DNA of 64,000 nucleotides from Candidatus Multivorans sp. (GCA_965247095.1 OZ251997.1:3456001-3520000), one strand, 5' to 3'. Shown: positions 6,820 to 19,175, counted from the first letter of the stretch. The notes: a model not told the origin generated them from the sequence alone. Translations and numbers: made by a program.

Positions 6820-7638
6820 GTGACCAAGGGCCGGCCTCCCGGACTACCTGACTTCCGCAAGCCGCCGCTTGTGGAGGTCGCGCTATCGGTACAGTTCGAA
6901 CCACTGCCCGGACTGACAACGGCTCACGTCGGGCTCCTGTGGCAGAGCAACTACCGGCACCAACTGCCTCTCATCGAAGAACATCCCCCGCTCGAGCCGG
7001 CCACAGAGGATTTCGGCCCGCCTGGTCCCCAGGGAGTCACGATCGCCTTCGGCAACAAACCGCCTGCACCGCGTGTGTGGTTTCTGAACGAGGAGAAGAC
7101 AGAGCTTCTCCAGATTCAGCCTGACCGATTCGCCCACAACTGGCGCAAGACGGGCGAACAGGACCGCTATCCGCGGTACGAGACGATCCGGGACCAGTTC
7201 AGGGATGAAGTCCGTGCGTTTGCCGGGTTCCTCAACGAGGAACGCCTGGACGGCCTATCGATCAACCAGTGTGAGGTCACCTATGTGAACCACGTCGATC
7301 TGGACGAGCCGGAGTTCAGTCGCTTGGAGAAGCTGGTCGCGAACTGGCAGCCGCTTCGCGAGTCCGCCTTCCTGCCCGTTCCCGAGGACCTGTCGTTGAG
7401 CTGGCGATTCCGAATGCCGAATGAGGCCGGCCGCTTACACGTCTTCGTCCAGCCCGCTTGGGATTCGAGCGGAAAACGCCTCTGGGCGTTCCGGCTCATG
7501 GCGCGAGGTCGTCCGGCCGGGGAAGGATTGGAAGGCGCCTTTGGGTTCCTGGATTTGGGCCGAGAGTGGGTCGTCCGCGGATTCGCGGATCTGACGACTG
7601 GCTTGATGCATCGTTTATGGGAGAGAACAGATGTTTGA
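6820..7638 (+). CDS. TIGR04255 family protein
   Basis: PPLVEVALSVQF, RVWFLN, LLQIQPDRFAHNWRK, YPRY, CEVTYVN pattern typical of the family. Confidence 0.8.
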   Translation: MTKGRPPGLPDFRKPPLVEVALSVQFEPLPGLTTAHVGLLWQSNYRHQLPLIEEHPPLEPATEDFGPPGPQGVTIAFGNKPPAPRVWFLNEEKTELLQIQPDRFAHNWRKTGEQDRYPRYETIRDQFRDEVRAFAGFLNEERLDGLSINQCEVTYVNHVDLDEPEFSRLEKLVANWQPLRESAFLPVPEDLSLSWRFRMPNEAGRLHVFVQPAWDSSGKRLWAFRLMARGRPAGEGLEGAFGFLDLGREWVVRGFADLTTGLMHRLWERTDV

Positions 7639-8167
7639 CACAGCCCAATCGGGCCACATGGTTCTTTCTGAACCCCTCGGCTCGCCGGACGAGCACACGA
7701 CATCGTCGAGCGCGTCCAGCCAGCTTGCGAGCGGTCCTGCTCCGCCCGGGGTGCAGTTCCGGGTTGTTAGTGGACCGTATCGCGTCTTGATCGACGCGCC
7801 TCGACTCCCGTCGAAGTCGGTACTGGAGGCGATCCGTCGGGCAGCCGAGCTACTGCAACTCCCTCGGGGCTGGAACTCATACGATGCCGCGCCAGTCTCT
7901 CAGGAGTCCCTTAGAGAGGCACTCACGTTCCTCCTCGAGGCCGCAACAACCATCCCGAACTTGGCGTCACCCGCCGTCGTGCCGACGGCTCCGGGGGGAA
8001 TCCAGCTCGAATGGCACCAAGGCGGAGTGGACATCGAAGTCGAGTTCAACCCCGACGACCCACCGTCTTGGTATGCCGAAGATGTGGCAAGCGGCGAGAC
8101 AGCAGAAGAGGTCCTTGCCCCGAACGACGCCACCCTTCGCGTGTGGTTGGCTCGGGCTTCAGACTGA
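7631..8167 (+). CDS. Hypothetical protein (LxxLxxGWNSYDAxP ... GGIQLEW domain)
   Basis: Overlaps the TIGR04255 stop; low-complexity N-terminus then compact domain. Confidence 0.7.
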   Translation: MFDTAQSGHMVLSEPLGSPDEHTTSSSASSQLASGPAPPGVQFRVVSGPYRVLIDAPRLPSKSVLEAIRRAAELLQLPRGWNSYDAAPVSQESLREALTFLLEAATTIPNLASPAVVPTAPGGIQLEWHQGGVDIEVEFNPDDPPSWYAEDVASGETAEEVLAPNDATLRVWLARASD

Positions 8168-8171
8168 CTTC

Positions 8172-8585
8172 GTGACATCGCCCGAAGAGTGCCGGGCGCG
8201 GTTCCCCGACGATCCAGAGATCGAAGACCATGTGGGCCTGCTGCGGCGGATTCCACGAAGGCACTTCGTGCCCGACAAGAACGGCGGAGGTCGTCGGCTT
8301 TCTTCCGCAGCCTTCTACGACGACCGCGGCGGGGATCCCATGTCTGTCTATCGCACGGACGTCATCGCGTCGGAAGGCGACCGCCCGGACCGGGTGATGG
8401 CCGGGCATACGGGTTTCGGTCTGGTGTCGATCACTGCCGAGAGGTGCCGCCAGAAACAGCAGACAGTTCATGCCGATCCGCTTCCTGACGAGACTGCCCA
8501 CGCCTTGGTCTGCGGCCCGAAGACGAGGAGCCGCCGGAGGTGTTTTGCGAAGCACTCGCAATGGGTCATCGTCCCTCCGGCTTAG
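8172..8585 (+). CDS. Small hypothetical protein, possible ADP-ribosyltransferase/RES-like toxin fold
   Basis: GTG 4 nt after upstream stop; LLRRIP...SSAAF...MSVY...AHALV gives an R-S-H pattern; fold assignment is inference. Confidence 0.55.
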   Translation: MTSPEECRARFPDDPEIEDHVGLLRRIPRRHFVPDKNGGGRRLSSAAFYDDRGGDPMSVYRTDVIASEGDRPDRVMAGHTGFGLVSITAERCRQKQQTVHADPLPDETAHALVCGPKTRSRRRCFAKHSQWVIVPPA

Positions 8586-8657: not shown

Positions 8658-11600
8658 CTACTTCGGGCGGAAGCGAGTAGCGACATACGTTTCGGCGTCC
8701 CTTTCGCCAAGCCGCACCGTGCCCGGCCCGCTCCGAACGTAGAAATCGCCGTCAGGCCGCTTCTCCAGCACCTTCCACCGCAAGTACACCGGCTCGGGAC
8801 TTCGCTGGCAACTCACGAGACAGACCGTCTTTCCCTCCACGATCTGCGTCTCAGGATCGATGCACGTGCCGGCCCGATCGCCCAAACCGTTGCGTACAAC
8901 CTGCGCCAAGTGCCGCATGAACTTGTCGTCGCTCTCCAGGCGGTCGTGGTCGATGCCGAGCACGTTGCGGTCGTCGTCGACGCCGATGAGGAGGTCCCCG
9001 CCATCGGTGTTGAGGAAGGCGGCGATGGTCTTGAGGGCCGCGTGGGTCACGTGCCGGTCGTCCTTGCGGCCCTCCTTCAGGTTCCAGCGCAGGCTCGACT
9101 TGAACTCGAGCGTCTTCGATTCCTGGAGCTTGAGCAGTTCTTCGGCTCGGCGGTGTCGCTTGATGTAGTCCTCGAACAGGTAGTCCTTGAGGGTCCGGCC
9201 GAAGTCGGGATCGTCGGTGATGCGCTTGTAGAAGTCGAAGTTGGTCTCGACGATTTCCTGGATCTTGTCCTCGACCTTGGGATCGAAGGTGAGCCGCACG
9301 TTCTCGCGGGTGTTCACCCTGGCACTCGCGGTGAGGCCGGCGTCGTGGTCGAGGGCGGATCGGATCTGTTCGAGGGTGACGCGGTGCTCGTCGGTGAGGT
9401 TCAGACCGAAGCGCTCGTTCAGGCCCTCGATGATCCGGGACAGGGCTTCCAACTCCTCGCCGCCGGCGCCGCCTGCAGGCTTGCTCCCGGCGGGCTCGAG
9501 CGGCCGGACTTGCCGTTCGAGCGCAATCCGGCCGCGGCTTGTCGGCTGGATGCGGAAGGACTCCATGTCGATGTTCTGCTGCACCTCGAGGGGCAGGGCC
9601 TCTCGGCCGACGGATAGCAGGCGGCGGAGGTGTCTGGCGAACTGGTAGAGCTTCTCGAGATCGGTATCGGCAAAGGTCAGAACCTGGGAGAGGAAGGCGT
9701 AGAGGCGGGTGTAGTCGGTGAGTTGGCCGAGAAAGTCCTGCGCTTCTTCGTCGACCAGCTCGGCGAAGCGCTGGCGGGCGGGTTCGAGGGCGGCGTAGAT
9801 TCGGTCCTGGGTGGCCTCGGGACCGAAGTACGCCCGCGCGAACGTCTCGATGTCGGCGGTCGCGAACACGCCGAAGTCGACCAGCCGTCCCTGGACTTCG
9901 TACAGCAGGTTGGGGTCGGTCTCTTCGGAGAGGAGGGTGGTCTCGTAGTACGGCTCGAAGGCCTTCTGGATCTCGTCCGGCTCGTTGGCGAAGTCGAGGA
10001 CCATCGTGCCGCCCTTGGCGGGGTGGGTGCGGTTCAGGCGAGACAGCGTCTGGACCGCGTTCACGCCGCCGAGTTTCTTGTCCACGTACATCGTGTGGAG
10101 CAACGGCTGGTCGAAGCCGGTCTGGAACTTGTTGGCGACGATCAGGAAGCGGTACTCGGGCTTGTCGAACGCGGCGGCCGTCTGCCGCTCGCCGATCACC
10201 CGATCCTGCCCGGCCGAGTTCATGCCGGACTCCGTGTAGGACTGGCCGCCGTCCTTGACCGTTCCGGAGAAGGCGACGAGCGCCTTCCAGGGGTGGCCCT
10301 TCTCCTCCACGTAGCGATCCAGGGCGAGCCTGGTGCGCACCGCGTGCAGGCGGGAGCGGGTGACGATCATTGCCTTGGCGCGGCCGCCGATCTCAGGCGC
10401 GACCAACTCGGCGAAGTGCTCCACGCAGATGGCGATCTTCTCTCGGATGGCATGCGAGTGGAGCTCGACGAAGGACTTGAGGAGATGCTCCGCCTTCCGT
10501 TTGTCGTAGCGCGGGTCGCCCTCGATCTTCTTCTTCAGGCGCCAGTACGCCTTGTAGGTCGTGTAACTGCCGAGCACGTCGAGAATGAACCCCTCCTCGA
10601 TCGCCTGGCGCATGCTGTAGAGGTGGAAGGGCTTGAACCTGCCGTCCGGCTGCTTCTCGCCGAAGAGCTCGAGGGTCTTGGGCTTCGGCGTGGCCGTGAA
10701 AGCGAACGTCGAAAGGTTCGGCAGTGGCCCGCGGAGGCGGATCTCCTCGTGGACGCGGTCTTCGAGCTCCTCCTCGGGAGTCAATGCGCCCGCCTCTGCC
10801 TGCTCGGCCTCCTCCAGGCTCTGCGCGTCGAGGACGGCCTTGAGGCTCTTGGTGCTCTCACCGGACTGCGAGGAGTGCGCTTCGTCCGCGATCACCGCGA
10901 AGCGCTTGCCGGGGAGCTGGCCGATCTCATCGGCGATGACCGGGAACTTCTGCAACGTGGTGACGATGATCGTCCGGCCGGCTTCCAGGGCCTCGCGGAG
11001 TTGGCGCGAGGTGTGGTCGATGTTTTCGACCACGCCGAGGGTCTGCTCGAACTGCCGGACGGTCTGCTGGAGCTGGCGGTCGAGCAGTCGACGGTCGGTC
11101 ACCACGACCACCGAATCGAAGACGCGCCGGTCGTCGAGGTCATGCAGCACCGAGAGCTGGTGGGCGAGCCAGGCGATCGTGTAGCTCTTGCCGCTGCCGG
11201 CCGAATGCTGGATCAGGTAACGCTCGCCCGGGCCGTGGTTGCGCGCGTGGCTGACGAGCCGGCGCACACAGTCGAGCTGCTGGTAGCGCGGGAAGATGAG
11301 GAAACGCTTGCCAGTCCTGCGCCCGCGATCATCTTCCTCCGTGACCTCCTGGATGAACTGGCGAAGGAGGTCGAGGATGCTGTCGCGGGCCCAGATCCGC
11401 TCCCACAGGTAGTCGGTGGGGTAGCCCTGGCGGGTGAGCGGGACGGCCGGGTTTCCCGCGCCGCCGTAGCGGCCCTGGTTGAAGGGCAGAAACCGGGTCT
11501 TGGGCCCCGCGAGGTGCGTGGTCACGAACACCTGTTCCGGGTCCACGGCGAAGTGGGCAAGGCAGCGTCCGTAGCCGAACAGCGGTTCCCGCGGATCCCG

Positions 11601-12194
11601 ATCGTTCTTGTACTGCCGGATGGCGTCGTCGACGGTCTGTCCAGTGAGTGGGTTCTTGAGTTCGGCCGTGAAGATGGGAATGCCGTTCAGGAAAAGCCCC
11701 AGGTCGACGCTCTCCTCGTTCTTCTCGCTGAAGTGGAGCTGGCGTACGACGGCGAAGAGGTTGGCGGCGTGCAGGCGCTGGAGTTCCTCGTTGAGGCCGC
11801 TTGCCGGTTGGAAGTACGCGAGCCGGAACTTGCAGCCCGAGTCTCTGACGCCGTTCCGCAGCACGTCGAGGGCGCCGCGGCGGGCGATCTCGCGTGACAG
11901 GCGGCCCAGGAAGCGCGGCTTCAGGTCGGCGCCGTAGTGCTGCTTGAGCTTCGTCCACTCCTTTGGCTGGGTGGCCAGGAGGAAGTCGAGGACATCGGGC
12001 GGGACCAGGCAGAGGGCGCGGTCGTAGTCCTTGGGCCGGCGCTTGTGGAAGCCGCCGGGCAGCGGGTCGTGGCCGTATGACGCGGCGGACTCGCGCAGTT
12101 CGGTGACGTCGTCCGGGTGGGCGTCGGGGCCGTGCTGGAGGAGGGCGCGCTCGATGGCCTGCTCGAAGCCGCGTTCTGAGATCTCGGGAGTCAT
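8658..12194 (-). CDS. hsdR: Type I restriction endonuclease subunit R with C-terminal Schlafen/AlbA_2 domain
   Basis: DLGLFLNGIPIFTAELKN nuclease motif, SAGSGKS, DEAH, FTATPK, QTLSRLNR; last ~160 aa ESKTLEFKSS...IAAFLNTDGGDLLIGVDD. Confidence 0.92.
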   Translation of the reverse strand: MTPEISERGFEQAIERALLQHGPDAHPDDVTELRESAASYGHDPLPGGFHKRRPKDYDRALCLVPPDVLDFLLATQPKEWTKLKQHYGADLKPRFLGRLSREIARRGALDVLRNGVRDSGCKFRLAYFQPASGLNEELQRLHAANLFAVVRQLHFSEKNEESVDLGLFLNGIPIFTAELKNPLTGQTVDDAIRQYKNDRDPREPLFGYGRCLAHFAVDPEQVFVTTHLAGPKTRFLPFNQGRYGGAGNPAVPLTRQGYPTDYLWERIWARDSILDLLRQFIQEVTEEDDRGRRTGKRFLIFPRYQQLDCVRRLVSHARNHGPGERYLIQHSAGSGKSYTIAWLAHQLSVLHDLDDRRVFDSVVVVTDRRLLDRQLQQTVRQFEQTLGVVENIDHTSRQLREALEAGRTIIVTTLQKFPVIADEIGQLPGKRFAVIADEAHSSQSGESTKSLKAVLDAQSLEEAEQAEAGALTPEEELEDRVHEEIRLRGPLPNLSTFAFTATPKPKTLELFGEKQPDGRFKPFHLYSMRQAIEEGFILDVLGSYTTYKAYWRLKKKIEGDPRYDKRKAEHLLKSFVELHSHAIREKIAICVEHFAELVAPEIGGRAKAMIVTRSRLHAVRTRLALDRYVEEKGHPWKALVAFSGTVKDGGQSYTESGMNSAGQDRVIGERQTAAAFDKPEYRFLIVANKFQTGFDQPLLHTMYVDKKLGGVNAVQTLSRLNRTHPAKGGTMVLDFANEPDEIQKAFEPYYETTLLSEETDPNLLYEVQGRLVDFGVFATADIETFARAYFGPEATQDRIYAALEPARQRFAELVDEEAQDFLGQLTDYTRLYAFLSQVLTFADTDLEKLYQFARHLRRLLSVGREALPLEVQQNIDMESFRIQPTSRGRIALERQVRPLEPAGSKPAGGAGGEELEALSRIIEGLNERFGLNLTDEHRVTLEQIRSALDHDAGLTASARVNTRENVRLTFDPKVEDKIQEIVETNFDFYKRITDDPDFGRTLKDYLFEDYIKRHRRAEELLKLQESKTLEFKSSLRWNLKEGRKDDRHVTHAALKTIAAFLNTDGGDLLIGVDDDRNVLGIDHDRLESDDKFMRHLAQVVRNGLGDRAGTCIDPETQIVEGKTVCLVSCQRSPEPVYLRWKVLEKRPDGDFYVRSGPGTVRLGERDAETYVATRFRPK

Positions 12195-12257: not shown

Positions 12258-12512
12258 ATGCGTGGGAAGCACCGGCGAACCCTGGAGAGAATGCGCACGC
12301 GGCCAACGCCGGCGGACATCCGCTGGACGGACCTCGTAGCCATGCTCCAGGCCGCTGGTGTCCAGGTCTCGGAGCGCTCCGGGTCGAGAGTGCTCCTGAA
12401 GCAGGACGCGGAGCGGATGATTGTGCATCGGCCGCATCCAACACGGGTACTGGGCCGCGGGGCGGTGCGCGCCATCGTCGCCTTTCTCGATGCTGGAGGA
12501 GTGGAACCATGA
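12258..12512 (+). CDS. hicA: HicA family toxin
   Basis: IRWTDL, ERSGSRV, HRPHP motif; 84 aa; overlaps hicB. Confidence 0.88.
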   Translation: MRGKHRRTLERMRTRPTPADIRWTDLVAMLQAAGVQVSERSGSRVLLKQDAERMIVHRPHPTRVLGRGAVRAIVAFLDAGGVEP

Positions 12513-12841
12513 TGAAGTACAAGGACTACGTTGCTGCCGTCGAATTCGACGATTCGGTGGGCCGTCTGCACGGCTGGGTCGTCAACAGCGGCCCCTATCC
12601 CATCGCGACGTTCGAAGCGATCGATGTTGACGGGCTTCGACGGGAGTTCGAGCGCTCCGTCGACGAGTACTTGGCGTCGTGCGCGGAGGATGGCGTCGAG
12701 CCGCGAAAGCCGTTCTCCGGCGTCCTCAACCTGCGGCTTGGACCCGACCTGCATCAACGAGCCGCCCTTTCCGCCGGCGCTCTCGGTGTGAGCCTGAACA
12801 GTTGGATCAAGCAGGCCGTCGAGGAGAAGGCTCTTCACTGA
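12509..12841 (+). CDS. hicB: HicB family antitoxin
   Basis: MKYKDY, FERSVDEYL, PRKPFSGVLNLRL, SLNSWI (RHH). Confidence 0.9.
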   Translation: MMKYKDYVAAVEFDDSVGRLHGWVVNSGPYPIATFEAIDVDGLRREFERSVDEYLASCAEDGVEPRKPFSGVLNLRLGPDLHQRAALSAGALGVSLNSWIKQAVEEKALH

Positions 12842-13111: not shown

Positions 13112-14488
13112 TCATCGAGGTGCTGCCTCACGCACGTCGATCTTGCCGGTGACCGCGGCGGAGATGAGAGCGGTGCGGAGTTCCTTGAAGTGGCGGATTG
13201 CTTCCTCAACCTTGGCAACTAGGAGATGGACGCGGAGACACTCCTTCTGGATGTGAGCGACGATGTTGCCTTGCTCATCAACTCGTGGCACAGGCGTCGT
13301 GAGTGTCTTCACTTCGGGCATCCCGATCGTACGCAGTGTGGCGCCCATCGTTAGTCGCTCAAGCTCGCTCCGCATGGCGTCGAAGACGCGCAGCAGGTAC
13401 TCGGGACTCACGGCCTCGCTGCAAAGCCAAGCTATGAAGTGCTGCGACACGGCCGTCGAGCGCTCGGTTATCGCACAGAGGCCAATCGTTGCGTCGCGCG
13501 AGAAGACGACCGACCGTGGCGGAAGCAGGCGGGCCGACGAGTTGGCTAGCCCGAGTTCGTTCGTGTAGTACGCCGTGTCGCCGATGTAATCGTGATTCTT
13601 GAGGTAGCCAGTATCGTTCAGCGAAACCCAGGGAATGTCCCCGTCGTTCCAGTAGGCGTCGACTTTCTTGTCTGGAGTATGGCCGCTCTCCATTCGAGCG
13701 ACCCATTTCACACGCTTCACATCCCAGTGCATCGGGATCTCGCCCAGCCACTCGACGCCGGAGTCCTTCATGGGGACTTTGGGGTCGAGGCCCCGGGTGA
13801 CGACGCGGGTGATGAGGGCGGTCCGTTTCTCCTTAAGCAGCTCGATCAGCCGCTCCTTCTTCGCCACTAGCGCATCGATCTTCGCTGTCTCGCGGTCGAG
13901 GAAATCAGCGATTGCTTGTTGCTCGGAGAAGGAGGGTAGAGGATGGCGGAAGTTGCGAACAAAGTTACCGGAGATTCGCTTCTGGCCGCCCGCGCCATAC
14001 ATGGAGGCTTCTCCGATGAGGCGGAAGTGGTTGCCGAAAGTCAGGTAGAGAAGGAAACGAGCTTCCACCTCGGAAGACGGACGTAGCACGTGGAGCTCGG
14101 TCGTTCCGAAGCCGACGCTACTGGAGAGGCCTTTGGCTAGAGCGCCCTTACCGTTCTCGAAGCACGGCGTGATCTTGGCAACGATGACGTCTCCGTCGCG
14201 GAAGTACGTGTAGCCGTCGAGGACCTCTGAGAGCGGTTTGGTCGAATCGAGGCTCAGGCCGCCGTACTCGCGGATCGCTTCCATCGGAACAAAAGAAACC
14301 TCGGTCTCGGGATTGAAGGTGCTTACCTCTTTCTTGCTGAGTCTCGTTTCAACGACGAACCGGAGCCGCGTAGAGTCCCAGTGCGCCGGAATCTCCGGCA
14401 GCCACTCGATGTCGGGGTCCCTGTATTCTGGGTACCGCTGAAAGCGTCGCCGGGCCTCCTCCTCGGTCCAGTGGGTAATCTCGGTCAT
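13112..14488 (-). CDS. hsdS: Type I R-M specificity subunit S
   Basis: Two TRDs with conserved EWLPEIPAHW / DSGVEWLGEIPMHW, EQQAIADFLDRETAKID, LISAAVTGKIDVR. Confidence 0.93.
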   Translation of the reverse strand: MTEITHWTEEEARRRFQRYPEYRDPDIEWLPEIPAHWDSTRLRFVVETRLSKKEVSTFNPETEVSFVPMEAIREYGGLSLDSTKPLSEVLDGYTYFRDGDVIVAKITPCFENGKGALAKGLSSSVGFGTTELHVLRPSSEVEARFLLYLTFGNHFRLIGEASMYGAGGQKRISGNFVRNFRHPLPSFSEQQAIADFLDRETAKIDALVAKKERLIELLKEKRTALITRVVTRGLDPKVPMKDSGVEWLGEIPMHWDVKRVKWVARMESGHTPDKKVDAYWNDGDIPWVSLNDTGYLKNHDYIGDTAYYTNELGLANSSARLLPPRSVVFSRDATIGLCAITERSTAVSQHFIAWLCSEAVSPEYLLRVFDAMRSELERLTMGATLRTIGMPEVKTLTTPVPRVDEQGNIVAHIQKECLRVHLLVAKVEEAIRHFKELRTALISAAVTGKIDVREAAPR

Positions 14489-15444
14489 GGCTCTTCGCCT
14501 CCGGTCAGAGCCTGAAGTCCCGCTCGCCATGGCCCGCGGGGGGGCCAGACCTGCGTGAACGGCCTCCCCCCAATGAGGCTGTCGCAGACCGGACCCAGAA
14601 AGGTCCGCAACTCCTCGCCAGCGTCAACGAGGTGAGCCGGCCCATCGGCCTTTGGCCCTATCCGCCTCCGCAGCACCTGCCACCTCTGGTCTCGCTCGGT
14701 GTCCTCGTAGTACTCAGGCAGCAGAGCCACCGGCCTCTCACTGGCGAACGATGTTCGCCGGCGCCGGAAGGTCTCCTCAACCGCGGTTCGCACCGTCTCG
14801 CCGTCGAACGCGAAGAGGCGAGCGAGACAGGCGATGTCCCAGAGATCCTTCACGCGGGTGTTCGTCGTACCGAGGCGCACCATCGCGTCGAGCTTCTCGG
14901 CCAGAAGAGTCTCCCGCGGGTAGGTCCAGAGGCGCGGGGCGGGCAGGTCGAGAAGGGTGGGATAGTCCCGCTCCTGACGCTCGGGCGTGATGACGTCACC
15001 AAAGCCGATGTCCGCCTGGAGGTGGAGTCGCGCCTGGCCGAGCCCGCCCTCCATCCGCACGCGCACACCGCCGTGGGGCTGGTCGTCACGGATGTCGTGC
15101 ATACGGATCGTCGCCGGGTCGAAGACGACGCCGTCCTGGGGGCATGGCGCTGCGCAGATCGCTTCAAAGGAGGTCCGCAAGGCCGCATGGTCTTCGGGCC
15201 CGGACGAGAGAAAGTCGATGTCCCGGGTGGGTCGCAGTTCCTGTCCGGTCCATACCCGGAAGAGAGCCGCCCCCTTCAGGGTGAATCGATCCACCTCATG
15301 GGAGGTGGCGAGGCGGTACAGGAAGCGCTCCATCGCGTAGCGCTGGAGCAGGAGATTGAAGCGAGTCCCCTGGCGGTGGGCAAGGTTCAGCAGGCGCTGG
15401 TGAATGGATGCGGGAACGTTGCGGATCTCCCTCTTGCGGGTCAT
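14485..15444 (-). CDS. abiEii: AbiEii type IV toxin (nucleotidyltransferase)
   Basis: ASIHQRL, YAMERFLYRL, LKGAAL, RPTRDIDF, AEKLDA, RVKDLWD. Confidence 0.9.
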   Translation of the reverse strand: MTRKREIRNVPASIHQRLLNLAHRQGTRFNLLLQRYAMERFLYRLATSHEVDRFTLKGAALFRVWTGQELRPTRDIDFLSSGPEDHAALRTSFEAICAAPCPQDGVVFDPATIRMHDIRDDQPHGGVRVRMEGGLGQARLHLQADIGFGDVITPERQERDYPTLLDLPAPRLWTYPRETLLAEKLDAMVRLGTTNTRVKDLWDIACLARLFAFDGETVRTAVEETFRRRRTSFASERPVALLPEYYEDTERDQRWQVLRRRIGPKADGPAHLVDAGEELRTFLGPVCDSLIGGRPFTQVWPPRGPWRAGLQALTGGEEP

Positions 15445-16097
15445 GCCGACAGAGCCTCCAGCACCGGACCGACCAGCGACTTGGCGCGGCAGACCTCCGC
15501 AGCCCGCCAGATCTCGTCGGCGGTTGCCTTGCGGTCGCCCAGGGCGTCGCGAAGTGCCTCCAGCGCCACGTCTTTCCCGACTAGCCTGCGGAAGCGAAAG
15601 CAGTCCACGACCGTTCGGGCCGGGCTCGTGATGCGCGTCGGAACCCCCTCGAAGGTTGCCCTCACGACCCCGTAGTGGAGCGAAGCGCCGGAGAAGCGAA
15701 CGATCTTGACCGGTAGCTCGCCAAGTTGAGGGGCTCTGGCCTTGTGCGGAATGGCGATCCACTCCTGCCACGGGAGCTGGGTCCCAAGGCCGTGGACGCT
15801 GAGCGCGGACAGCAGGCAGACAATGGCGCCCGGGACCCGCGCGCAAACTGCGGCCAGGGTGTAGTGCTCGGTGGGTTCCATGTCGGCGAGCCGGTAGAGA
15901 CCACGGGCAACTCTCTCGACCGAACCGGCATCCACGAGTTGCCGCAGTTGGCGGGAGTGGACGCCCAGTTGGGCTGCATCGCGCTGGCGGAAGAAGCCCC
16001 TGGCGCCGAGGCTCTGCCGGGCGGTGCCGCTCAGCCGGGTACGCCGGTCGGAAGTGTCGGCAACTGTGGATAGTTGCCTGCTGTTCTCAACGGCCAT
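15441..16097 (-). CDS. abiEi: AbiEi type IV antitoxin
   Basis: VERVARGLY, VCLLSALSVHGL, TSPARTVVDCFRFR; ATGA overlap with abiEii. Confidence 0.88.
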   Translation of the reverse strand: MAVENSRQLSTVADTSDRRTRLSGTARQSLGARGFFRQRDAAQLGVHSRQLRQLVDAGSVERVARGLYRLADMEPTEHYTLAAVCARVPGAIVCLLSALSVHGLGTQLPWQEWIAIPHKARAPQLGELPVKIVRFSGASLHYGVVRATFEGVPTRITSPARTVVDCFRFRRLVGKDVALEALRDALGDRKATADEIWRAAEVCRAKSLVGPVLEALSA

Positions 16098-16173: not shown

Positions 16174-18288
16174 TCAGCTTGCCATCTCTTGCAACATCTC
16201 GGCGATCTCGCTCTCCACCCGCTGGATATCGGCTTCGATCTCCTCCAGCGGCCGCGGCGGACGGTACTCGTAGAAGTAGCGGTTGAAGTTGATCTCGTAG
16301 CCGACCATGCCGACCTTCCCGTCCTTGTCATCCTGGCGGTTTGTGTCGATCCAGGCGTCGGGAACGTGGGGCTTGACCTCGCGCTCGAAGAACGACTCGA
16401 CGCTCTCCGAAAGGGGCACGTTCTCGGTGTCGCGGAGGGCCGGGTCGGGCTCGGGGCGGCCTTTCCGGTCGCGGCAGATCTTCGCCTTCTCGTTGCGCTC
16501 GGAGAGGGCGGCGAGAACGGCTTTCCTGATGGGTGCGGTGAGTTTCAGATCGGCTGCTTGGATTGCCCGGTCGAGTTCGGCTTCGAAGACCGCCCTGTCC
16601 AGGAACTGCCGATCGGGCAGCGTCTCCAGCAGAGCGCGAATCGCTGACTGCTTCTGTCTTCCGGCTTGCTCGTCCTTCGCCTTGGCTTCGGGGTCCCTCT
16701 TGCGGGAAACCGCCAGGTTGGCGAAGGCGCGCTGGTTGTCCAGCAGAGGAATCCGCTCGGGGCTGGCCTGGAAGTCGAGCCGGAGCGGCCGTTCGACGGT
16801 GATTTTGCGGAAGCCGAAGTGCGTGGTCGGATAAATGCGGCTGACGACGACTTCCCGCTCCTCGCCATTCTCGACGACCGTTCGGGTGGCGCCGTCCTCG
16901 TAGTCCCGGAGCAGCCGCAGGATGTCTTCCTTCCGCTCGAACGGGATCTCGCGGCGCTTCGCGCCCAGGCTCTTGCGCAGCAGCACCCAGAACGAGGTGG
17001 CGTCGATGAGTTGGACCTTGCCGCGGCGCTCGGAGCGCTTCCGGTTTGTCAGCACCCAGATGTAGGTGGCGATGCCCGTGTTGTAGAAGAGCTGCTCGGG
17101 GAGCGCGATGAGCGCCTCAAGCAGGTCGTTCTCGAGGATGAAGCGGCGGATCTCGCTCTCGCCGCTGCCGGCGTCGCCGGTGAAGAGGGGGGAGCCATTC
17201 ATGATGATCGCGATCCGCGATCCGCCCTGGTCCGGCGCCTTCGCGTGCGCCAGCATGTGGAGCAGGAACAGGAGTTGCCCGTCGCTGATCCGCGGCAGGC
17301 CCGGCGCAAAGCGGCCGGCGGCGCCCCGGTCGTGTTCGGTCCGCACCGCGTCCTGGTCGCGCTTCCAGTCCTTGCCGTAGGGCGGATTGGCGATCATGTA
17401 GTCGAAGCCGCTTCCGGCGTGCCGGTCGTTCGAGAGCGTGCTCCCGAACAGGATGTTGTTCGCGTCGCCGCCGTCCTCCGACTTCATGAAGAGGTCCGAC
17501 TTGCAGAGGGCGAAGGTCTCGGGGTTCACTTCCTGGCCGAACAGGTGGATGTCGGCGTCCGGGTTCACGGGGTCGCCCAGGTGCTTGCCGTCTCGTAGTT
17601 CGCCCTGGGTCGTGTGCTCCTTGGCGATGGTGAGCATGCCGCCGGAGCCGCAGCAAGGGTCGTAGATGCTGCGCGCAGCGCCCTCAGTCCGCAGCCCCTC
17701 TTCGTCGCCGGCGAGCATCAGGTCCACCATGAGATGGACCACGTCGCGGGGCGTGAAGTGCTCGCCGGGGTTCTCGTTCAGCGCCTCGTTGAACTTGCGG
17801 ATGAGCTCCTCGAAGATCGTGCCCATCGTGAAGTTGTCGATCTCGTCCGGGTGCAGATTGACCCTGGGGTCGCCGAACCGCTGCATGACCTGGAACAGCA
17901 GGCCCGACTCGTCGAGCTTGGAAATCGTGTTGTCGAAGTCGAACTTCTCCAGTACCTCGCGCATGTTGGGGCTGAAGCCGGCGATGTAGGCGCGCAGGTT
18001 CTTCGCGATATCGGGCGCGTCGGCGAGGAGCTTCCCGAAGTCGTACCGGGACGTGTTGTAGAACGCGTATCCGGAGGCGCGGCGGAGCAGCCGTTCGGGA
18101 TTGTCGAGCTTGCCCCGGTACTGGGCTTGGACCTCCATCACCCTCGCCTTGGTGGGCGCCAGCACGCAGTCGAGCCGGCGCAGCACGGTGAGCGGCAGGA
18201 TCACGTCCTGGTACTTGCCGCGCTTGAAGGTGTCGCGGATCAGGTCCGCGACGCCCCAAAGGAAGCTGACGATCTGGCTGTGGTTCAT
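16174..18288 (-). CDS. hsdM: Type I R-M N6-adenine methyltransferase subunit M
   Basis: GEHFTPRDVV, YDPCCGSGGML, GQEVN, NPPY, GYEINFNRYFY. Confidence 0.95.
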   Translation of the reverse strand: MNHSQIVSFLWGVADLIRDTFKRGKYQDVILPLTVLRRLDCVLAPTKARVMEVQAQYRGKLDNPERLLRRASGYAFYNTSRYDFGKLLADAPDIAKNLRAYIAGFSPNMREVLEKFDFDNTISKLDESGLLFQVMQRFGDPRVNLHPDEIDNFTMGTIFEELIRKFNEALNENPGEHFTPRDVVHLMVDLMLAGDEEGLRTEGAARSIYDPCCGSGGMLTIAKEHTTQGELRDGKHLGDPVNPDADIHLFGQEVNPETFALCKSDLFMKSEDGGDANNILFGSTLSNDRHAGSGFDYMIANPPYGKDWKRDQDAVRTEHDRGAAGRFAPGLPRISDGQLLFLLHMLAHAKAPDQGGSRIAIIMNGSPLFTGDAGSGESEIRRFILENDLLEALIALPEQLFYNTGIATYIWVLTNRKRSERRGKVQLIDATSFWVLLRKSLGAKRREIPFERKEDILRLLRDYEDGATRTVVENGEEREVVVSRIYPTTHFGFRKITVERPLRLDFQASPERIPLLDNQRAFANLAVSRKRDPEAKAKDEQAGRQKQSAIRALLETLPDRQFLDRAVFEAELDRAIQAADLKLTAPIRKAVLAALSERNEKAKICRDRKGRPEPDPALRDTENVPLSESVESFFEREVKPHVPDAWIDTNRQDDKDGKVGMVGYEINFNRYFYEYRPPRPLEEIEADIQRVESEIAEMLQEMAS

Positions 18289-18666: not shown

Positions 18667-18927
18667 ATGAAGAGGAAGCTGACGATCAGGGTAGACGGCG
18701 AGCTGATTCGCCGAGCCAGGCACTGCGCTCAGGCTCGCGGCGTCTCGCTGTCTTCCCTTGTAGAGACATCGCTCAGAGAGGTGGTGCGGGAAAGCGATCC
18801 CTCGTTCGCGTCCCGGTGGAGGGGCAAGTTCGAAGAGGCACGACGAGACGATGTCCGGTACAAGGCGCTCGCCCGCAAGTACCTTGACGGTGCCGGACAG
18901 GGGTGCTCGACAGAGGCTGCCGTATGA
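18667..18927 (+). CDS. DUF6364-like RHH antitoxin, orphan
   Basis: MKRKLTIRVDGELIRRAR...GVSLSSLVE...RWRGKF...LARKYL. Confidence 0.65.
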   Translation: MKRKLTIRVDGELIRRARHCAQARGVSLSSLVETSLREVVRESDPSFASRWRGKFEEARRDDVRYKALARKYLDGAGQGCSTEAAV

Positions 18928-18992
18928 AGCACAAGGGCTATATCGCCGCCGTCGAGTACGACGATTCGGTAGGTCGTCTACACGGCTGGGTC
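18924..18992 (+). pseudogene. HicB N-terminal fragment
   Basis: MKHKGYIAAVEYDDSVGRLHGWV nearly matches HicB at 12512 (MKYKDYVAAVEFDDSVGRLHGWV), then similarity stops. Confidence 0.8.
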
Positions 18993-19175
18993 GAGATCGC
19001 AGCCGTCGTCGCCGACGATCCGGCGGATCATCGCGCCGACCGGTTCCTCGTCCACAACCGCGCTACGGAGGATGCGCCGAACGGTCTCCTCCAGAGACAG
19101 GGACTCCCGCTCCGCACGAATCTTCAGGCGACGGACGACCTCACTGTCTAGGCGACGTACACTCAGGCTTGCCAT
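18978..19175 (-). pseudogene. FitA-like RHH antitoxin, orphan and probably 3'-clipped
   Basis: MASLSVRRLDSEVVRRLKIRAERESLSLEETVRRIL; collides with the HicB fragment; no PIN toxin follows. Confidence 0.7.

Follow-up and report, generated by a model that had tools for sequence, protein, structure and literature searches.

The hsdR::slfn gene

The DNA analysed here (the window) is a stretch of 64,000 nucleotides from Candidatus Multivorans sp. (GCA_965247095.1 OZ251997.1:3456001-3520000). It carries a predicted type I restriction-modification (R-M) cassette in the order hsdM-abiEi-abiEii-hsdS-hsdR::slfn, with all hsd and abi genes on the minus strand, and our subject is the last of these genes, in which the restriction subunit HsdR is joined to a C-terminal Schlafen/AlbA_2 (Slfn) domain. 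A first-pass annotation of the sequence had proposed this in-frame fusion at 8658..12194 and placed its Slfn part at 8658 to ~9140 (~160 residues); the open reading frame (ORF), the Pfam matches and colinear related loci agree on the fusion, and the measured extent of the Slfn part is about 8661-9150. The gene lies in a single open frame that runs on the minus strand from 12437 to 8658, with its start at the ATG at 12194, the position of query residue 1 in most related loci (tblastn). Its parts are as follows.

8658..12194, minus strand: hsdR::slfn, 1178 residues plus stop codon (8658-8660); ORF, Pfam, PADLOC and TIGR00348
11505..11768, minus strand: N-terminal PD-(D/E)xK nuclease region, residues 143-230; Pfam HSDR_N
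9942..11282, minus strand: superfamily 2 (SF2) translocase motor, residues 305-751; Pfam, EcoR124I match and motifs
9150..9941, minus strand: helical C-terminal region, residues 752-1015; no Pfam match
8661..9149, minus strand: Schlafen/AlbA_2 domain, residues about 1016-1178; Pfam match at residues 1025-1161 (8712-9122)
9099..9122, minus strand: active-site motif E1025-x4-E1030-x-K1032 (ESKTLEFK, residues 1025-1032); alignment A2
8973..8975, minus strand: D1074, third carboxylate (GVxD; GVDDD, residues 1071-1075); alignment A2

Residues 1-1015 have the appearance of an ordinary type I HsdR, with a PD-(D/E)xK nuclease, an SF2 translocase and a helical tail. The nuclease region matches HSDR_N with E 1.8e-15 (57.8 bits vs a cut-off of 25.1), and its core can be located at VDLGLF (163-168, which supplies the D) and AELKN (177-181, with ELK at 178-180). 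In the motor, the Pfam matches to SWI2_SNF2 (305-541), ResIII/DEAD (within 302-541) and a T1R_D3-like domain (679-727) all lie above their cut-offs, and the strings SAGSGKS (331-337), DEAH (437-440), TATP (500-503) and QTLSRLNR (715-722) are present; we take these nuclease and helicase strings to be the motifs they are usually named for, an assignment that carries no tool score. Pfam domains and located strings together bear out the earlier claim that the nuclease and helicase motifs are intact.

PADLOC assigns the product to REase_I (1.8e-35), and the NCBIfam hsdR model TIGR00348 covers residues 143-751 (E 3.5e-63) at 214.2 bits, under its cut-off of 284.55, so that we place the protein in a divergent HsdR family. 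The top PDB sequence match is EcoR124I HsdR (E 1.1e-11, residues 325-453), a type IC subunit with the same order of nuclease, motor and helical tail that is distant and lacks a Slfn domain. The nuclease, the motor and the hsdM and hsdS partners argue for a type I HsdR, the TIGR00348 score being the one measure that falls short. Relatives currently go by the names 'DEAD/DEAH box helicase' or 'putative DNA binding domain-containing protein', and those that lack the Slfn domain mostly stop at query residue about 1000-1019.

The Schlafen/AlbA_2 domain

The match to SLFN_AlbA_2 (PF04326) at residues 1025-1161 has an E of 4.6e-19; at 69.5 bits it clears the gathering score of 25.3, and it takes in profile positions 1-116 of 118. 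Two alignments were used: A1, with 32 close relatives, and A2, which adds 20 more distant Slfn sequences (n=52), so that HsdR fusions from several clades stand beside GmrSD_N fusions and others, at identities reaching down to 26-45%. E1025, E1030 and K1032 are invariant across the 52 sequences of A2 and D1074 is at least 90% conserved; the pattern E-x4-E-(F/Y)-K was also kept in 10/10 divergent HsdR-Slfn representatives inspected by eye. The strings ESKTLEFK and GVDD quoted in the first-pass annotation are present, and the acidic residues it described as retained are E1025, E1030 and D1074, with K1032 completing Ex4ExK. Among the distant PF04326 loci L092-L121, 16/30 match the A1 profile, weakly, and these were kept out of the alignment.

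E1025, E1030 and K1032 also conform to the motif published for prokaryotic Schlafens, Ex4(E/D)xK (PMC13056530). In human SLFN11, E209, E214 and K216 are essential and D252A did not abolish activity; Mn2+ is required and the active species is a dimer (PMC9482658). A domain profile built from the 32 relatives gave 14 distinct matches among PDB sequences at E<=1, all 14 of them Schlafens, and aligned ESKTLEFK to ESQSIEFK, and LIGVxDD to FIGVDD, of pig SLFN11.

An AlphaFold model of the domain from A2 has a predicted local distance difference test (pLDDT) score of 91.5 and a predicted template modelling (pTM) score of 0.87; the run on A1 alone was unusable (pLDDT 40.4), a problem that the broader A2 solved. 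Foldseek returned 22 PDB matches for this model at E<=1e-3, including DIP2311 (3lmm, a bacterial AlbA_2-GHKL protein), the SAMD9 tRNase domain (9o0d), the DNA-bound SAMD9 domain (7ksp), 2kyy, and SLFN5/11/12/13/14. In VIA comparisons, 20 Schlafen/SAMD9/AlbA_2 entries stand at Z 9-14.5 (3lmm at 14.5, the SAMD9 domain at 12.0-12.2, then 11.0, and SLFN5/11/12/13/14 at 9-10.7), and the next unrelated match at 5.1. On the SLFN proteins the model covers residues about 170-350, corresponding to the C-lobe; the two-lobe core of mammalian SLFN proteins was not found in this single lobe of ~160 residues. The three best ESM Atlas scores (0.86) all belong to Slfn/AlbA_2 clusters and serve as a lead only, and PADLOC (2023), with 0 families matching the Slfn part alone, is uninformative on this domain. 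By sequence, motif and predicted fold, the tail of HsdR is a member of the Schlafen/AlbA_2 nuclease family.

Integrity and selection of the fusion

In 54/66 whole-gene loci the gene gives one colinear tblastn match from residue 1 to at least residue 1170, and for this reason we regard the in-frame fusion as real; hsdR::slfn is frameshifted or truncated in 12/66. Among the 54/66 colinear loci the Slfn part was never seen as a separate gene, in a comparison that included no search for shorter proteins. Comparison of the 54 full-length relatives with the window gene gave the following median ratios of nonsynonymous to synonymous substitution rates (dN/dS).

Nuclease region: dN/dS 0.207, amino-acid identity 0.76
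Motor: dN/dS 0.178, amino-acid identity 0.82
Helical tail: dN/dS 0.266, amino-acid identity 0.72
Slfn domain: dN/dS 0.133, amino-acid identity 0.83

The Slfn domain is the most constrained of the four regions; at a G+C content of about 65%, the dS values behind these ratios are possibly distorted.

The same genome holds a truncated second HsdR-Slfn copy (G000:C1:2328125-2329918, or L091:6126-7919, minus strand), which covers residues 557-1175 at 67% identity (65% by tblastn), contains one TAA stop and has no hsdM or hsdS nearby. About 4 kb from it lies a third PF04326 match (G000:C1:2324053-2324382), in an open frame of 583 residues.

Distribution

The combination of HsdR and Slfn is widespread. 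A search with query residues 990-1178, restricted to proteins of 647-2062 residues, found 1428 matching clusters at E<=1e-3 among 2272 candidates; the best 120 of these all carry both PF04326 and the HsdR family PF22679, most are 1176-1179 residues long, and their Slfn domains are 82-92% identical to that of the window. With query residues 1-980, PF04326 was present in 119 of the best 120 matches. The fusion is thus not unique to this assembly; uniqueness would have told against the first-pass annotation.

A scan of one-genome-per-species contigs, which detects close relatives only, gave 109 stretches encoding a relative of the last 200 residues, of which 80 were kept as loci, all at least 65% identical. 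The nearest are from Acidobacteriota metagenome-assembled genomes labelled Candidatus Multivorans (93-94%). The record titles of the related loci bear at least 15 phylum labels, among them Acidobacteriota, Pseudomonadota, Chloroflexota, Actinomycetota, Gemmatimonadota, Methylomirabilota, Armatimonadota and Planctomycetota; further labels are Nitrospira, Myxococcota, Spirochaetales, Thermodesulfobacteriota, Binatia, Eisenbacteria, Fermentibacteria and Terrimicrobiaceae. Since all loci remain at least 65% identical across these labels, recent horizontal spread is indicated. The whole gene occurs in 4/19 same-genus genomes, the window's own counted, and is therefore accessory; PF04326 as such is present in 84/201 genomes of the phylum (a count that takes in one unpublished genome, G078).

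The cassette and its conservation

The other members of the cassette, and a hicB-family gene that lies within it on the opposite strand, are listed here.

16174..18288, minus strand: hsdM, 704 residues; Pfam HsdM_N and N6_Mtase; PADLOC MTase_I 9.4e-268
15441..16097, minus strand: abiEi (antitoxin/regulator), 218 residues; Pfam AbiEi_4 and AbiEi_1; PADLOC AbiEi 5.3e-70
14485..15444, minus strand: abiEii (DUF1814 nucleotidyltransferase toxin), 319 residues; Pfam AbiEii 3.3e-42; PADLOC AbiEii 7.3e-95
13112..14488, minus strand: hsdS, 458 residues; Pfam Methylase_S in two stretches; PADLOC Specificity_I 1.7e-114
12509..12841, plus strand: hicB-family antitoxin gene between hsdS and hsdR; Pfam HicB 6.7e-19

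The abiEii start overlaps the abiEi stop at ATGA, and the two overlapping genes are predicted to form an AbiE type IV toxin-antitoxin pair. The hsdS ATG follows directly on the abiEii stop, although the longest hsdS ORF reaches 14530. HsdM is long: its residues ~434-704 are without a Pfam match, though the PADLOC MTase_I model covers the full length.

Where related loci extend at least 1.6 kb into the flank, HsdS lies upstream of hsdR in 54/59. Among the 52 loci with at least 6 kb upstream, HsdM, AbiEi, AbiEii and HsdS are found together in 33/52; 7/52 have AbiEi, AbiEii and HsdS (HsdM being beyond reach), 6/52 have HsdM, AbiEi and HsdS with AbiEii not matched, 3/52 have none of the four and 3/52 have other combinations, with AbiEi present in 46/52 overall. 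A 61%-identical HsdR-Slfn locus (L135, G028:C2:1378000-1388500) has abiEi-abiEii upstream of hsdM, which indicates that the AbiE link survives altered gene order; in this locus an ISL3 transposase interrupts hsdS, and between hsdS and hsdR stands a Peptidase_M78/IrrE-like gene. Modification of tRNA acceptor stems has been described for DUF1814/MenT relatives of AbiEii (PMC7450476, PMC10435456). Our literature search found no paper on the arrangement in which an AbiE pair sits inside an R-M operon between hsdM and hsdS.

The hicB gene sits in the 917-nucleotide gap that separates hsdS from hsdR, a position where it is found in some related loci only, and a hicA partner for it was not found in the window. 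Upstream of hsdM, 70 nucleotides at 18924-18993 (plus strand) are 84% identical to the start of hicB (12512-12581, plus strand), and the ORF at 18924-19151 shares only its first ~23 residues with HicB, so that this remnant and the intact gene flank the 6.4-kb hsdM-abiEi-abiEii-hsdS block. HicB matches also occur at cassette borders in L001, L004, L002, L016, L017, L026 and L032.

The Slfn domain as an optional module of the HsdR family

A representative library at 50% identity contains 17,033 relatives at E<=1e-3. The best 150 HsdR representatives are mostly 960-1030 residues long, and the Slfn domain is present on 11 of them and absent from 139/150. On a FastTree phylogeny of 130 HsdR cores (Slfn columns trimmed off; 21 sequences <940 residues dropped), the nine Slfn-bearing rows need six state changes, five of them forced by well-supported branches, so that the domain has been gained or lost repeatedly; the trees used here come from FastTree or quick searches and have long branches. 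As far as these trees can tell, the Slfn domain is an optional extra of the wider HsdR family, with at least five to six gains or losses. Other additions to HsdR include a C-terminal treble-clef zinc finger (P0238, P0287), long unassigned C-terminal tails, an N-terminal EAD7 domain (P0211) and, in 16 clusters (P0155, P0300-P0314), an S24 (LexA-like) peptidase at the C-terminus; among these 16 only P0155 (Acanthopleuribacter pedis) has Slfn and then S24.

For comparison we examined ten metagenome loci related to a Slfn-less HsdR (P0151), seven of which have hsdM and hsdS. No match to AbiE was found in these seven sister operons. Between hsdM and hsdS they hold a Slfn gene (1/7), PIN toxins (3/7; L082, L084 and L086) or nothing (3/7), and this HsdR family thus repeatedly hosts RNA-directed toxins. 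The Slfn gene (L081:5509-7200) encodes a free 563-residue Slfn-HATPase_c_4 (GHKL) protein, with a weak, sub-threshold match to a MarR-type helix-turn-helix (HTH), whose Slfn domain is 31% identical to that of the window and keeps E-x4-E-F-K. The Slfn nuclease of this R-M family appears either in trans or as part of HsdR. The same locus has a DUF4268 protein between hsdS and hsdR (L081:8073-8996), and L086 a Uma2-family putative endonuclease beside its PIN_3 toxin (L086:4582-5238).

The closest Slfn domains outside HsdR in same-genus genomes are 37-40% identical. Three of them stand at the C-terminus of GmrSD_N (DUF262) proteins of 748-792 residues (L132, L133, L134), and two others end proteins of 330 and 575 residues without another Pfam match. 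In a quick tree of Slfn domains, with many long branches, HsdR-linked and GmrSD_N-linked copies interleave, a picture that is no more than suggestive.

Comparison with published systems

Prokaryotic Schlafens were described in 2025-26 as phage-defence tRNases, over half of those linked to defence adjoin R-M or other nucleases, and published fusions include R-M methyltransferases and a type I specificity subunit (PMC13056530, PMC13462974, bioRxiv 10.64898/2026.05.29.728809). The authors of the Cash study speculate that R-M-linked Schlafens sense structures arising from DNA cleavage, and in a BREX survey Schlafens figure as 'backup suicidal effectors' (PMC12839542). None of the three Schlafen papers uses the term 'HsdR' in its main text, though their supplementary tables may list the architecture. 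When full texts were searched for Schlafen together with HsdR or 'type I restriction', one paper contained all three terms, a nuclease review that leaves them unconnected, and further searches added nothing. The linkage of Schlafens to R-M is therefore known, and the HsdR variant is not described in the main texts searched.

The nearest published architecture is DUF262-Slfn, represented by EcoSlfn7, which gives broad phage defence and cut T7 plating about 538-fold (PMC13056530). Like HsdR-Slfn, it has a C-terminal Ex4ExK Slfn domain on a restriction-type DNA-sensing nucleoside triphosphatase (NTPase); unlike it, EcoSlfn7 is a single gene with no methyltransferase or specificity subunit, SF2 translocase or PD-(D/E)xK nuclease. 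RorSlfn5, CbCash and SLFN-pAgo share the single-lobe Slfn nuclease and its motif. They cleave tRNA, and a fused sensor domain controls their activity through oligomeric state (a dodecamer-to-filament switch in Cash, a hexamer in RorSlfn5); their sensors are an Ig-like domain (for a phage tail chaperone), Csx15 (for cA4) and Argonaute with a GHKL ATPase, and none is a restriction motor. The Slfn-GHKL 'Schlatpase' (bioRxiv 10.64898/2026.05.29.728809; PMC13462974 clusters 3, 4 and 7) likewise ties a Schlafen to R-M, there with a GHKL ATPase and HTH, separate or fused to S or M, whereas here a bare Slfn domain sits on the C-terminus of HsdR; the gene in L081 is a free form of this kind. Human SLFN11 also joins an E-x4-E-x-K Slfn nuclease to a helicase-like DNA-binding domain and is a dimer-active tRNase linked to sensing of single-stranded DNA (ssDNA); it differs in its N-terminal two-lobe core, in its SF1-like domain, which does not hydrolyse ATP alone, and in having no DNA nuclease and no methyltransferase partners.

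Proposed function and alternative explanations

We think it probable that the Slfn domain is a regulated RNase acting as a second effector of the R-M complex. Residues 1016-1178 are a single-lobe Slfn nuclease domain with an intact metal-binding Ex4ExK motif; its role would be RNA-directed, and its substrate, judging from the characterised active Schlafens, would most likely be tRNA. As long as the R2M2S1 enzyme rests, the domain would stay latent; once switched on, it would stop translation, such that one complex could deliver both DNA restriction and an arrest of the abortive-infection type. Because the prokaryotic Slfn domain is a C-lobe only and the characterised Schlafens are dimeric or higher, the active form probably needs two HsdR tails, and hence two lobes, to pair. 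The HsdR C-terminal region of EcoR124I docks on the methyltransferase, and docking of the HsdR tail on the methyltransferase probably sets the exposure of the Slfn domain here. That an RNase effector should be tied to a type I R-M enzyme seems reasonable, since the sister operons hold other RNA-targeting toxins.

The switch, we suspect, would be the state of HsdR on DNA, namely loading, prolonged translocation, stalling or collision on unmodified foreign DNA, with an inhibitor protein less likely in this role. Such a trigger is favoured because the Slfn domain is on the motor subunit and not on the M2S core, because GmrSD_N, the fusion partner of its nearest relatives, senses DNA directly, and because, by analogy, ssDNA binding to the helicase domain of SLFN11 activates its tRNase (PMC13056530). 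Engagement of HsdR with DNA as the trigger is put forward with some reserve, and the full account, which combines a latent tRNase effector, paired lobes and a switch set by the state of the DNA, is a tentative one that may well prove wrong in part. In a more specific form, which we consider unlikely as it stands, a pair of translocating HsdR subunits that stall or collide on unmodified foreign DNA would bring the Slfn lobes together to form the tRNase, turning the recognition of non-self DNA straight into a block of translation, and with AbiEii the five-gene cassette would strike both the DNA of the invader and the tRNA pool, as a counterpart of SLFN11.

Several points weigh against this account. 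The substrate, the latency and the trigger are all inferred for HsdR-Slfn, and the HsdR family to which it belongs is divergent and biochemically uncharacterised. SLFN5 is a nuclease-dead nucleic-acid binder (PMC9482658) and the SAMD9 domain was also solved bound to DNA (7ksp); the fold alone is therefore no proof of RNase activity. If each act of restriction activated the domain, the cell would pay a heavy cost. In the AlphaFold model the HsdR tail's last helix is joined to the first Slfn strand by only ~5 residues. Finally, most of the 80 loci belong to one horizontally spread lineage and are not independent, and the AbiE link likewise rests mainly on one spread lineage (at least 65% identity).

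The strongest alternative, proposed in the first-pass annotation, is a fail-safe resembling PrrC, in which the Slfn tRNase is silenced by functional R-M and freed only when a DNA mimic (Ocr, ArdA) or the Stp peptide disables the enzyme. PrrC is a tRNase that lies latent on the type IC enzyme EcoprrI, as a second line of defence, until a T4 inhibitor of that enzyme activates it (PMC1484252), and the parallel gains from the RNA-targeting toxins embedded in type I operons of this HsdR family, from the 'backup suicidal effectors' label given to Schlafens in BREX studies and from the placement of the Slfn domain directly after the HsdR C-terminal region, where the assembly state could gate it. What stands of the proposed RNase backup is a conserved Slfn site joined covalently to HsdR; the domain has no relation to PrrC in sequence or fold. 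PrrC is a separate polypeptide that pairs an ABC-type NTPase with an unrelated nuclease and responds to the T4 Stp peptide, and no Pfam match to a PrrC-type ABC NTPase or nuclease was found in the hsdR::slfn protein or the operon, so there is no ABC-ATPase relay domain. DNA mimics bind the M2S core of type I enzymes, whereas the Slfn domain is on HsdR, and its nearest relatives are fused to a sensor of DNA and not of inhibitors. On these grounds we regard release by an inhibitor as unlikely, though worth keeping in view.

The Slfn domain might instead serve restriction itself, whether by binding nucleic acid or as a nuclease directed at ssDNA; it would help HsdR to hold or process DNA, at stalled forks or loops for example, or would recruit the enzyme. 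In GmrSD the DNA nuclease domain stands C-terminal to GmrSD_N, the position that Slfn occupies in the GmrSD_N-Slfn fusions. AlbA_2 domains do bind DNA (hSAMD9 with DNA, 7ksp, Z 12.2), as do SLFN11 and SLFN5 (PMC9482658), and the NCBI name 'putative DNA binding domain-containing protein' is in keeping with such a role. HsdR, however, already owns a DNA nuclease, and 139/150 HsdR representatives manage without Slfn; the invariant Ex4ExK points to catalysis over mere binding, and the characterised active Schlafens cleave RNA in the published texts. We therefore consider a role in restriction improbable.

It is less probable still, to the point of being very doubtful, that Slfn and AbiEii are chiefly toxins that stabilise a mobile R-M cassette through post-segregational killing. 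The cassette is indeed mobile and patchy (4/19 same-genus genomes, with close copies under many phylum labels), and it has a toxin-antitoxin pair aboard and hicB or its remnants at its borders. Yet no antitoxin for Slfn is apparent, the 12/66 broken copies indicate that hsdR::slfn can be lost, and published Slfn systems act in phage defence (PMC13056530). An artefact of assembly or annotation, or a relic domain in decay, which the 12/66 frameshifted or truncated loci and the truncated, stop-bearing second copy in the same genome might have suggested, is ruled out for practical purposes by the recurrence of the 1176-1179-residue architecture in most of the 120 best clusters, the 54/66 colinear loci, a dN/dS of 0.13 and the invariant catalytic motif.

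The wiring between DNA-targeting defences such as R-M, BREX and CRISPR and 'suicide' RNases is still an open question; PrrC on EcoprrI, the classic case, is a protein of its own and difficult to dissect. HsdR-Slfn places an RNase candidate within the polypeptide of a restriction motor, in a family whose close relatives occur naturally with and without it, and extends the parallel with mammalian Schlafens, in which the nuclease is joined to a DNA-engaging helicase-like domain. The fusion also points to the HsdR C-terminus as a place where accessory modules dock, among them Slfn, an S24 peptidase and a zinc finger. Should the Slfn domain do no more than bind nucleic acid, the outcome is a modest correction of annotation.

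Surroundings of the cassette

The island is flanked by ordinary metabolic genes. The window contains no tRNA genes; a promoter scan returned 0 sites and a terminator scan 4 sites, vs 7.2 expected by chance, and neither signals nor tRNA genes mark the limits of the island. Downstream of hsdR, at 6820-8585 on the plus strand, lie three ORFs with lower third-position G+C and no Pfam match, one of which (7631-8167) gave a PADLOC match at 2.2e-10 to the candidate PDC-M32A, in its C-terminal part; at the edge of the island, these ORFs may be what is left of additional defence genes.

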